Positions 35,969 to 40,321 of a stretch of DNA of 64,000 bases are shown in pieces. The translations under genes were made by a program, and so were the position numbers. A model generated the notes under the pieces. The model saw only the letters and a program-made list of their open reading frames with translations, did not search any database and was not told where the DNA came from. The DNA lies in the NCBI RefSeq assembly GCF_003334785.1, contig NZ_QOWV01000014.1; one strand, given 5' to 3'. The stretch is from Escherichia coli (GTDB lineage Bacteria; Pseudomonadota; Gammaproteobacteria; Enterobacterales; Enterobacteriaceae). Position 1 is the first letter of the stretch; every line of letters starts with the position of its first letter.

Positions 35969-36176
35969 AAAAGTATTGTTACAGCCAGATCACAGCGCAG
36001 AACGATAAAATGGCACAATCCAACAACAATTTTACATTTTCGCGACCGCTTTGGCTGCTTTCAGGTCCGTTTCAATGATATACTGCCAGTCGTTAATTCA
36101 AAAATAGTTGATAATTACAACAATCTATTGAATTGAAACGCTTTCCTTCGTAATTCGCAACTGGAACACGCACGCT

Positions 36177-37142
36177 ATGAGTAAACCCATTGTGATGGAA
36201 CGCGGTGTTAAATACCGCGATGCCGATAAGATGGCCCTTATCCCGGTTAAAAACGTGGCAACAGAGCGCGAAGCCCTGCTGCGCAAGCCGGAATGGATGA
36301 AAATCAAGCTTCCAGCGGACTCTACACGTATCCAGGGCATCAAAGCCGCAATGCGCAAAAATGGCCTGCATTCTGTCTGCGAGGAAGCCTCCTGCCCTAA
36401 CCTGGCGGAATGCTTCAACCACGGCACAGCAACGTTTATGATCCTCGGCGCTATTTGTACCCGCCGTTGTCCGTTCTGTGATGTTGCCCACGGTCGCCCG
36501 GTAGCTCCTGATGCCAATGAACCAGTGAAACTGGCTCAGACCATTGCCGATATGGCGCTGCGTTATGTGGTTATCACCTCCGTTGACCGTGATGACCTGC
36601 GCGATGGCGGTGCCCAGCACTTTGCGGATTGCATTACTGCCATTCGGGAAAAAAGCCCGCAAATCAAAATTGAAACTCTGGTGCCGGATTTCCGCGGTCG
36701 TATGGATCGTGCTCTGGATATTCTGACTGCAACGCCACCAGATGTGTTCAACCATAACCTGGAAAACGTACCGCGTATTTACCGTCAGGTACGGCCTGGT
36801 GCAGATTACAACTGGTCGCTGAAGCTGCTGGAACGCTTTAAAGAAGCGCATCCGGAAATCCCGACCAAGTCTGGTCTGATGGTGGGACTGGGTGAAACCA
36901 ATGAAGAAATTATTGAGGTAATGCGCGACCTGCGCCGTCATGGTGTGACGATGTTAACGCTGGGGCAATATTTGCAGCCAAGCCGCCATCACCTGCCGGT
37001 TCAACGTTACGTTAGCCCGGATGAGTTCGACGAAATGAAAGCCGAAGCGCTGGCGATGGGCTTTACCCATGCTGCATGCGGTCCGTTTGTCCGCTCTTCT
37101 TACCACGCCGATTTGCAGGCGAAAGGGATGGAAGTTAAGTAA
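36177..37142 (+). CDS. lipA: Lipoyl synthase (radical SAM)
   Basis: 321-aa ORF with the two cysteine clusters [12 protein letters not shown] and CTRRCPFC. Confidence 0.95.
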
Positions 37143-37171
37143 TCCTGTAATAATTACTTACATCTGTCTGA

Positions 37172-37204
37172 TAAAAAACCCGCTTTTTGAAGCGGGTTTT
37201 TTGT
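37172..37204. terminator. Bidirectional intrinsic terminator between the convergent lipA and tatE
   Basis: AAAAAACCCGCTTTTTGAAGCGGGTTTTTTG: a hairpin flanked by an A-run and a T-run. Confidence 0.8.
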
Positions 37205-37242
37205 ATCGAACAAGATATTGAGGGAGCGTCCTGCTCGCCACG

Positions 37243-37446
37243 TCACTCTTTATGAGAGAGCTTTTCAGCCTGAAGATCAACGTCTGCGCCTTTTTTCGCC
37301 GCAGCATCGTCATCATTCATCGCCTTCTTGAACCCTTTAATGGCCGCTCCAAGGTCTCCGCCCAGCGTACGTAACTTCTTAGTCCCAAACAGCAGAACGA
37401 CCAGCGCCGCAACTACCAGCAGTTTGGTAATACTAATCTCACCCAT
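37243..37446 (-). CDS. tatE: Twin-arginine translocase subunit TatE (TatA paralog)
   Basis: 67-aa [36 protein letters not shown].... Confidence 0.9.
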
Positions 37447-37574
37447 AGATACCTTCTTGACATATAACCGGCAACAGAACGCGCCTTAAAAACCAGAGAA
37501 TATTAACGGTCATTCGACGCGCGCACACAATAGCAATCTGTAACAAGGTGAATCAAGCGCCGAGTAAAAAAACA

Positions 37575-38368
37575 TCATAATAATTGCGGCGGCGCAAAGC
37601 GACGGTTGTTTAAGACGGGCAGTTGCGCGCGCACCTGACGCACACGTTCGGGCGTCACTTCCGCCATAATGAGTGCAGGCATTTCTGACGCTGCCGCAAT
37701 GGTGACGCCAAAGGGATCTATAATCCGGCTTTGACCGATATTTTTGTTCCCGCACTCCCCCGCCGCCACCATATAACAGGTGGTATCCAGCGCACGAGCG
37801 GCAAGCAACGTTGACCAGTGATGCTCTTTGAGCGGCCCGCGAACCCAGGCGGCAGGAAGTACCAGGATTTCAGCTCCCTGTAATGCCTGTGCCAGCGCCA
37901 GCTCTGGAAAGCGTAAGTCATAACAGGTCATCAGACCGACCTTCATCCCTTCCACCTCCAGTAACGGAGCGATTTCATTACCAGCATCAACACGGCGTGA
38001 TTCCTGAATGGCAAATGCATCATAGAGATGCAGTTTGGCATAACGGGCGACGATGTTTCCTGCCTGAAGTGCCACCAGCATATTCCATGCGCGCCCCGGC
38101 GTTGAAGGAACATGAATCGTCAGAATTGTCGTCATCATGTTACGTTTACTTTCTCGCCGTAAAGTCCGAGGAATTCGCCTTCCAGCAGCTGTGCTGATTT
38201 AACCGATAGATCTGCATCATGATCATCGCGCGCCAGCAATGCTTCCGGCAGGACAAACAGCGATACGTCGTTTTCCGCCGCCTGCGCCATCAACGAGGCA
38301 CAAATCTCAGCGTTCTTTTCCCACACAGATGTAACAGCAAACTGTCCTGCGGCAACCAGCATTGCCAC
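37575..38368 (-). pseudogene. ybeM: Carbon-nitrogen hydrolase (nitrilase superfamily) gene interrupted by a frameshift
   Basis: Two overlapping minus-strand ORFs in different frames (38135-38368, 77 aa, and 37575-38138, 187 aa). The catalytic Glu (LPE) lies in the upstream ORF and the Lys (AKLHLYD) and Cys (CYDLRFPE) in the downstream ORF. Confidence 0.7.
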
Positions 38369-38454
38369 CTCCTGTCAGAGTCGTAAAATTCGCCAACGAC
38401 GATTATTCGGCGTTACACTTATCACTCATACAAATCAAATAGCAGGATTTTGCA

Positions 38455-38838
38455 GTGTTACAACTTCTTTTAGCAGTTTTTATTGGCGGTGGTACGGGAA
38501 GCGTGGCGAGATGGCTGTTAAGTATGCGATTTAACCCACTGCATCAGGCGATTCCGTTGGGGACGCTGACAGCAAACCTGATTGGGGCATTCATCATAGG
38601 AATAGGATTCGCATGGTTCAGCAGGATGACGAACATTGATCCAGTGTGGAAAGTATTAATCACCACCGGATTTTGTGGCGGTCTAACAACCTTCTCAACA
38701 TTTTCGGCAGAAGTGGTGTTTTTGTTACAAGAGGGCCGCTTTGGCTGGGCATTACTGAACGTTTTCGTCAACCTTCTGGGGTCTTTTGCCATGACCGCAC
38801 TGGCATTCTGGCTGTTTTCGGCCTCAACCGCACACTAA
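38455..38838 (+). CDS. crcB: Fluoride channel CrcB/Fluc
   Basis: 127-aa four-TM ORF with GTG start. Confidence 0.9.
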
Positions 38839-38842
38839 AGAC

Positions 38843-38875
38843 CAAAAAAAACCCGCTGATTAAGCGGGTTTTGAA
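38843..38875. terminator. Bidirectional intrinsic terminator between the convergent crcB and cspE
   Basis: AAAAAAAACCCGCTGATTAAGCGGGTTTTGAATT. Confidence 0.8.
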
Positions 38876-38891
38876 TTCTTGCTGACGTATC

Positions 38892-39101
38892 TTACAGAGC
38901 GATTACGTTTGCAGCAGAAGGGCCTTTGGCACCGTTAGTGATTTCGAACTCTACGCGCTGACCTTCAGCAAGAGTTTTAAAACCATTAGTCTGGATTGCA
39001 GAGAAGTGTACGAACACGTCTTTGCTGCCGTCTTCCGGAGTAATGAAACCGAATCCTTTGGACTCATTAAACCACTTAACGTTACCTTTAATCTTAGACA
39101 T
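38892..39101 (-). CDS. cspE: Cold-shock-domain RNA chaperone CspE
   Basis: 69-aa [23 protein letters not shown]... with the RNP motifs of a cold-shock domain. Confidence 0.95.
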
Positions 39102-39275
39102 CAAAATTACCTTTACATGAAAAATAGACACAAATGCTGTGTCGGTTACCAGTACACCAATTGTGGTACGCTTTGTCCAGTGTAACTTTACTAAAAAGTG
39201 ATAAAAGTCGCGTTATTTTTGATGTTACTTATTTTAGCTATTGATTTTAAAGAAGTTACTAAAACTTCATTTGTC

Positions 39276-39836
39276 TCAAAACTGAAAGCGCATCCAGGCA
39301 AAGTACACATTGCCATTGTTGTAGGTACCCGGAATGTAGGTCATCTGAAAAGTCACTGGGCCATAACCCACGGAGGCCAATGGCAGTAGAACCGGGAGAG
39401 GGATGTAATTCCAGTTATCGCGTGCCGTTACGCCAGCGGTGAATCCCAGACCTAAATGAAAATTTTCATCCGCCAGCGGTCGCCAGGTACTTTCCCATCC
39501 GTATCCGGCAATCGGTTCCCATTTGTTCCACGAGTCCTTAAATGCCATGGCATACAGGCCATGCCAGTTTCCTTTTTCATCCCAACGCGACAGGCCAAAA
39601 CCGCCACCCCACGGTCGCTCGTTATAGCGATCGGTTTTTTCTTTGTCGTAAGCGAAACGTGCATGCCAGGTGATGGCAGGAATATATAAATCATAATGTT
39701 CAGGCTGTTGCCAGGTTTGTGCAATATTTTCTCTAAACGTTGTCATCCACTCATCTGCGTTAGCAAAAACTTTACCAACGCTGATTAACTGAATAAAAAC
39801 AAAGGAAAAGATAGCGACATATTTACTCACGTTCAT
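39276..39836 (-). CDS. pagP: Lipid A palmitoyltransferase (outer membrane beta-barrel)
   Basis: Start at the internal ATG ([25 protein letters not shown]..., signal peptide), 186 aa. Confidence 0.9.
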
Positions 39837-40321
39837 TTGTGACCATAAAACATTTATCAAAAATCTACTACTAGCATAGCAAAGCTACAATTAACATAAC
39901 CTTAATAGACCCAACATAAAGAATAATCTGAATAGCTGCTCTATTTATTTCCGCTTGTTCAAGTTAAATATTTCCGCGCATCGATTAAAGATGATGCGTC
40001 GTTTTCTGCGATGGGAATAGTCAAAAAAGAAAAACCAAGTCTTTTTTGATGACAAAATGCAATCAAGGAAAAATTATTTTATTTTTTAACGAGATACAAC
40101 AATCATCTTAACGAAGTATATAATATATATCGTCAACCTATGCTCATATTAGATTATTTTTTGAGCGCACAGCCGCAGCTAACACCATTGCAATTAACAA
40201 ATTTGCATCAATCCACCATCAATTTGCACACATTATTATGTGATAATTGCCAACCGCTAAATATGCGTTTTGTTATCTATGTATAAAAACAGCAACTTCA
40301 ATGTCTTAATGGCAGTTTTTA

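Follow-up and report, generated by a model that had tools for sequence, protein, structure and literature searches.

The window analysed here, a stretch of 64,000 nucleotides of Escherichia coli DNA, contains between positions 37575 and 38368 two minus-strand ORFs which overlap in different frames. They appear in the ORF list as 38135..38368 and 37575..38138, just as a preliminary description of this DNA had presented them, and together they occupy the position of the gene ybeM. The nearest genes are crcB, tatE and lipA, with cspE and pagP as further neighbours. The gene order pagP-cspE-crcB-ybeM-tatE-lipA is common to the window and to strains with an intact ybeM, which places the two ORFs at the orthologous position.

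36177..37142, plus strand: lipA, neighbour of ybeM
37243..37446, minus strand: tatE, neighbour of ybeM
37575..38362, minus strand: frameshifted pseudogene of ybeM, the gene for deaminated glutathione amidase, 788 nt as compared with 789 nt in the intact gene
38455..38838, plus strand: crcB, neighbour of ybeM

The lengths of the two ORFs had first been given as 77 and 187 amino acids. The second value is correct for the downstream ORF (37575..38138), which starts with an ATG. The 77-aa reading of the upstream ORF (38135..38368) exists when translation is taken from a GTG, but the start of ybeM is almost certainly the ATG at 38362 and not the GTG at 38368, and the N-terminal product accordingly has 75 amino acids. 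This choice is made because an AGGAGG motif lies 5 nt upstream of the ATG, because the GTG falls within this Shine-Dalgarno sequence and because PGAP picks the same ATG. Downstream, the native frame is open from position 38198 on, and its first ATG is the codon for Met76 at position 38138.

38368..38373, minus strand: AGGAGG, the Shine-Dalgarno sequence of ybeM, separated by 5 nt from the ATG at 38362 and with a predicted anti-Shine-Dalgarno duplex of -11.6 kcal/mol
38135..38362, minus strand: ORF of the N-terminal fragment (the YbeH equivalent), 75 aa, which on translation gives native residues 1-66 followed by the out-of-frame LYGEKVNVT and then TGA
37575..38138, minus strand: ORF of the C-terminal fragment, 187 aa, corresponding to native residues 76-262

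The assignment of the gene to ybeM and to the C-N hydrolase (nitrilase) family, made at first from the letters of the DNA, agrees with Pfam, with the NCBIfam model NF033621 and with the order of genes at the locus. The intact allele gives a full-length match to the Pfam family CN_hydrolase (PF00795), over residues 3-245 (E=9.4e-41). When one G was added to the window sequence, the repaired protein matched NF033621 (deaminated glutathione amidase) from end to end with 452 bits, the cut-off being 355. The two fragments as they stand in the window cover the two halves of the family separately: they scored 85.3 bits (model positions 2-65) and 344.6 bits (positions 76-260), both under the cut-off. 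Chance is no explanation for the two-ORF pattern, since a single restored G gives full-length matches to both CN_hydrolase and NF033621. Among the proteins of known structure, the best sequence matches of YbeM were NitFhit (1EMS, E=3e-29) and yeast Nit2 (4H5U, 1e-26). An AlphaFold2 model of the intact protein, computed with no alignment, was discarded as unusable (pLDDT 35, pTM 0.27).

The catalytic residues are distributed over the two ORFs. The Glu (in LPE) is encoded in the upstream ORF, and the Lys (in AKLHLYD) and the Cys (in CYDLRFPE) are encoded in the downstream ORF. Their counterparts in the alignment with 1EMS are Glu54, Lys127 and Cys169 of the Caenorhabditis elegans NitFhit protein, which we take to be its catalytic triad.

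38243..38245, minus strand: codon GAA of the catalytic Glu40 (LPE), aligned with Glu54 of NitFhit 1EMS
38034..38036, minus strand: codon AAA of the catalytic Lys110 (AKLHLYD), aligned with Lys127 of NitFhit 1EMS
37923..37925, minus strand: codon TGT of the catalytic nucleophile Cys147 (CYDLRFPE), aligned with the Cys of ICYDVRFPE in NitFhit 1EMS (Cys169)

Both the positions of the motifs and the 1EMS alignment thus bear out the early observation that a frameshift separates the Glu from the Lys and the Cys, and no single polypeptide encoded at the locus has all three. Because the triad residues are split over two ORFs, the ybeM locus of the window is a relic of a member of the C-N hydrolase family and not an intact member. 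The more distant homologues Nit1, yeast Nit2 (4H5U) and the Nit domain of NitFhit (1EMS) belong to the same CN_hydrolase fold family as YbeM and have the Glu-Lys-Cys motifs in common with it; they are active enzymes made of a single chain, whereas the copy in the window is interrupted. According to the text of PMC5714238 that cites Peracchi et al. 2017, deaminated glutathione (dGSH), a side-product of transaminases, is a substrate hydrolysed by Nit1 of mammals and Nit2 of yeast. The intact YbeM, which is of the Nit1 type within the nitrilase superfamily, is predicted to convert dGSH into 2-oxoglutarate and Cys-Gly. Peracchi's 2017 work reportedly also covered the E. coli homologue.

The lesion was located by a DNA alignment of the window with the 951-nt alleles of strains 300709 and K-12 AG100 and with the intact 789-nt CDS of strains EC-107, B and P31. 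Aligning the locus with intact orthologues had been recommended at the outset as the way to find the indel, and it gave a clear answer: the only length-changing difference in this set is a 1-bp deletion in codon 67 (CGT, Arg67), whose G is missing between C38164 and T38163. The site reads GGAC^TTTAC in the window, in 300709 and in K-12, as compared with GGACGTTTAC in the intact alleles, and the window allele around this site reads GGACTTTAC. The deleted G is outside any homopolymer run.

38163..38164, minus strand: site of the 1-bp deletion, from the alignment of the window with two frameshifted and three intact alleles
38135..38138, minus strand: ATGA stop/start overlap, in which the TGA of the shifted N-terminal frame (38137-38135) lies over the Met76 ATG of the native frame (38138-38136)

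The allele of EC-107 differs from the window by one base only, the deleted G (99.9% DNA identity), and the addition of one G to the window gives exactly the 262-aa protein of EC-107. The C-terminal ORF of the window is identical to the corresponding part of this intact allele and has no second lesion. In the preliminary description the junction had been placed at an ATGATGA sequence near 38135-38140. This placement was not correct: the motif lies at 38138..38132, with the deletion 26 nt upstream of it, and corresponds only to the overlap of the ORFs. In the intact gene ATGATG is simply the codons of Met76 and Met77, and the TGA is the first stop of the shifted frame. The ATGA overlap is a by-product of the shifted frame meeting these two codons.

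The frameshifted ybeM is a known and already annotated pseudogene. PGAP describes the same coordinates as "deaminated glutathione amidase, frameshifted", with a pseudogene flag, in strain 300709, whose DNA is identical here, and in K-12 AG100. An exact-sequence look-up of the 187-aa ORF returned "PUTATIVE PSEUDOGENE: Putative protein YbeM [E. coli K-12]", the 75-aa ORF of K-12 is "Putative protein YbeH" in UniProt (YBEH_ECOLI), and the entry for the intact protein is named "Deaminated glutathione amidase" (YBEM_ECO57). The two fragments have been on record in UniProt and GenBank since the original annotation of K-12. Published work treats the K-12 ybeM as a pseudogene and makes use of it as a neutral site for chromosomal integration (PMC4788846; PMC11731478). 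The K-12 pseudogene (old gene models ybeH and ybeM) lies at the same locus, has the same codon 67 deletion and is residue-identical to the window over the C-terminal 187 aa. It differs from the window, and from all aligned intact alleles, by two T>C changes at second codon positions (window 38252-38264; L002:1686 and 1698), which produce V33A and V37A. Both are nonsynonymous and lie in the N-terminal fragment just upstream of Glu40. They fit drift under relaxed constraint after inactivation, two changes being too few as proof. The intact YbeM (YBEM_ECO57; WP_000959109.1; NF033621) is encoded by DNA 99.9% identical to the window and forms a single ORF, whereas the window, with one G less, has none.

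The distribution of the deletion was examined with a 951-nt query over the ybeM locus, which found matches in 5425 of the 5426 complete E. coli genomes, with a span of either 951 nt or at least 952 nt. The exact 70-nt deletion junction was present by BLAST in 860 of these 5425 genomes, a count based, like that of the reciprocal search below, on identity bands and sampled rows, in which a few genomes of the 95-99% band could also carry the deletion together with a SNP. The rows sampled among the remaining genomes spanned at least 71 nt and so had the extra base, and in the reciprocal search the intact 71-mer was found exactly in 3553 genomes. The deletion is thus carried by about 16% of the complete E. 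coli genomes (approximately one in six, K-12 included), and the two-frame arrangement is missing in about 84%. It had been considered at first that intact orthologues might show the same organisation in two ORFs. They do not, the intact orthologues and alleles being single ORFs of 262 aa.

The K-12 haplotype with V33A and V37A was found exactly in 365 genomes, and approximately 500 carriers of the deletion are not of the K-12 type. The segment 26000-50000 of the window (24 kb) is 100% identical to the corresponding DNA of more than 15 unrelated wild isolates, which came from Canada goose, opossum, poultry, humans and fresh water and include NCTC9041 and NCTC9100. At ybeM itself the window, unlike K-12, is 100% identical to the wild isolates 300709, NCTC9100 and NCTC9041. 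The source of the window is a natural isolate, a wild relative of K-12 with a widespread near-identical haplotype, and not K-12 itself, since the 24 kb are shared with unrelated wild isolates and V33A and V37A are missing.

Other lesions were encountered in ybeM. A second, independent 1-bp deletion affects codon 26/27, where GATGGCGCAGG is changed to GATGGC-CAGG. This deletion was present in 8 or 9 complete genomes and, among draft assemblies, in hundreds of contigs; it was seen in GCA_010994105.2 (L007:~620) and also in EA7, B27, HeN100, MB30, TUM2820 and others, and the allele leads to a 242-aa gene call (P0018). In the O166:H15 strain JNE21-003 (NZ_AP041809.1, L006:3817-5911), an insertion of the IS21-family element ISEc62, with istA and istB, disrupts the 3' portion of ybeM. 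The existence of at least three independent knock-outs (the two deletions of a G, in codon 67 and in codon 26/27, and the ISEc62 insertion) suggests weak selection on the function of ybeM in some lineages. A 215-aa "YbeM" call (P0017) was considered as a further frameshift allele. It contains 1-bp insertions at two separate places, of which one is a run of A, and one of its source loci (L010) also has aberrant calls for tatE (95 aa) and lipA (87 aa). It was rejected, and the two loci concerned (L009, GCA_020556205.1; L010, GCA_020555935.1) are probably long-read assembly errors and not real alleles.

The P0017 case illustrates one alternative to be weighed for the window, namely that its genome truly has an intact ybeM and that the missing G is an error of sequencing or assembly, as had been envisaged when the split was first described. 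Single-base indels are indeed the commonest assembly error, and P0017 looks like such an artefact. However, 860 independent complete assemblies, obtained with many technologies and including the K-12 references and NCTC strains, share the codon 67 deletion, its site is not a homopolymer, and the fragments have stood in the databases since K-12 was first annotated. An intact gene hidden by a faulty base call is therefore extremely improbable. The deletion is real and not a sequencing artefact, because these 860 assemblies carry it and because the 24 kb around it are identical in unrelated isolates. A full-length protein could also be restored from the frameshifted gene by programmed -1 ribosomal frameshifting or by transcriptional slippage. 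The geometry would allow it, as the two frames overlap over approximately 38198..38135 and a -1 shift anywhere in this interval would yield a near-native protein. Against this, no slippery heptamer of the form X XXY YYZ was found in the N-terminal ORF, the homopolymers within the frame overlap do not exceed 3 nt, and the deleted G was not part of a run. Furthermore, most strains do not have the frameshift at all, whereas programmed shifts are conserved. Such a recoding hardly deserves any credence and is the least probable of the readings considered.

The preliminary description had left a choice between a true pseudogene and two coupled fragments. In the latter case, the 75-aa and the 187-aa products would both be made, the second one by termination and re-initiation at the ATGA, and would assemble, without a covalent link, into an amidase that is active at least in part. 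The position of the TGA (38137-38135) over the ATG (38138-38136) is the classic arrangement for such coupling, the C-terminal ORF is undamaged, and all three residues of the triad are kept between the two ORFs. However, the same ATGA is already explained as a by-product of the Met76-Met77 ATGATG, and the 20 nt ahead of Met76 contain no Shine-Dalgarno sequence (the strongest anti-Shine-Dalgarno pairing in them amounts to -3.1 kcal/mol, with a 13-nt spacing). The native residues 67-75 are gone, with nine unrelated residues in their place on the N-terminal fragment. Nor is the split conserved: only a minority of genomes of this one species show it, 3553 genomes have an exact copy of the intact 71-mer, every intact allele inspected encodes one chain, and neither the NCBIfam model, with its 260 positions, nor any of the solved homologues is divided. 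The two nonsynonymous changes of K-12 adjoin Glu40, and ybeM has been independently disrupted elsewhere. A functional split enzyme is thus very unlikely, and it is just as doubtful that the allele is a hypomorph, a weakly active split dGSH amidase sustained by re-initiation at the ATGA and kept as such in approximately 16% of E. coli, and not a dead gene. The true pseudogene is favoured over two coupled fragments, because the internal ATG is not preceded by a Shine-Dalgarno sequence, because the split is not conserved and because K-12 has acquired further nonsynonymous changes.

We propose, with a probability of roughly 0.93, that the ybeM of the window is an inherited loss-of-function allele of the dGSH amidase gene, a plain pseudogene, a reading drawn from comparison of sequences. 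With the G of codon 67 deleted, ribosomes starting at the ATG 38362 synthesize 66 native residues including Glu40, then nine wrong residues, and stop at the TGA 38137. The other 187 codons, with Lys110 and Cys147, would have no ribosome-binding site of their own and would be reached at most by weak re-initiation at the ATGA. Neither fragment possesses the whole Glu-Lys-Cys triad, and residues 67-75 are lost. The strain is most likely devoid of dGSH amidase activity, because the triad is incomplete on either piece and this segment is missing. The allele probably had a single origin, on a haplotype otherwise identical to the intact one, and would now be distributed in a widespread group with near-identical ybeM haplotypes, K-12 included. 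The undamaged state of the C-terminal ORF fits a recent event and is still compatible with a residual use. The loss of the dGSH amidase appears to be tolerated, since dGSH metabolite repair is not essential. Publications were searched for proteomic or expression data on the YbeH and YbeM fragments, and none of relevance came up.

The genome from which the window comes is probably, like K-12, without the amidase for the metabolite repair of dGSH. This lack is worth keeping in mind in work that takes K-12-like strains as a model for the repair of glutathione damage, and it would account for the suitability of ybeM as a safe site of chromosomal integration. In itself the frameshifted ybeM is real but ordinary, and it matters little.

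Some observations concern the regulation and the surroundings of the gene. A scan of 37200-38600 for promoters and terminators gave a number of sites not above that obtained in shuffled sequence. The 92-nt intergenic region between ybeM and crcB contained no Rfam family at the gathering score, the only element detected in the Rfam scan of 36000-40000 being of the cspA type, at cspE. There, cspE and its 5' leader (38844-39286, minus strand) matched the cspA thermoregulator RF01766 with 124 bits, the gathering score of this family being 78. For NsrR, a ChIP peak at ybeM is on record in CFT073 and in K-12; the peak is listed 345 bp from the start of ybeM, hence within the gene, and ybeM was down-regulated in CFT073 under NO stress (PMC5320621). 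Finally, a 56-aa out-of-frame ORF beginning with MFLQRRGAH is present inside ybeM at 37943-38113 on the minus strand of the window. The same MFLQRRGAH peptide was encountered in a study of a UTI89 expression library, in which a 29-bp fragment of ybeM over-expressed from pBAD caused filamentation, an effect that the authors consider not to have evolved for that function (PMC6206680).
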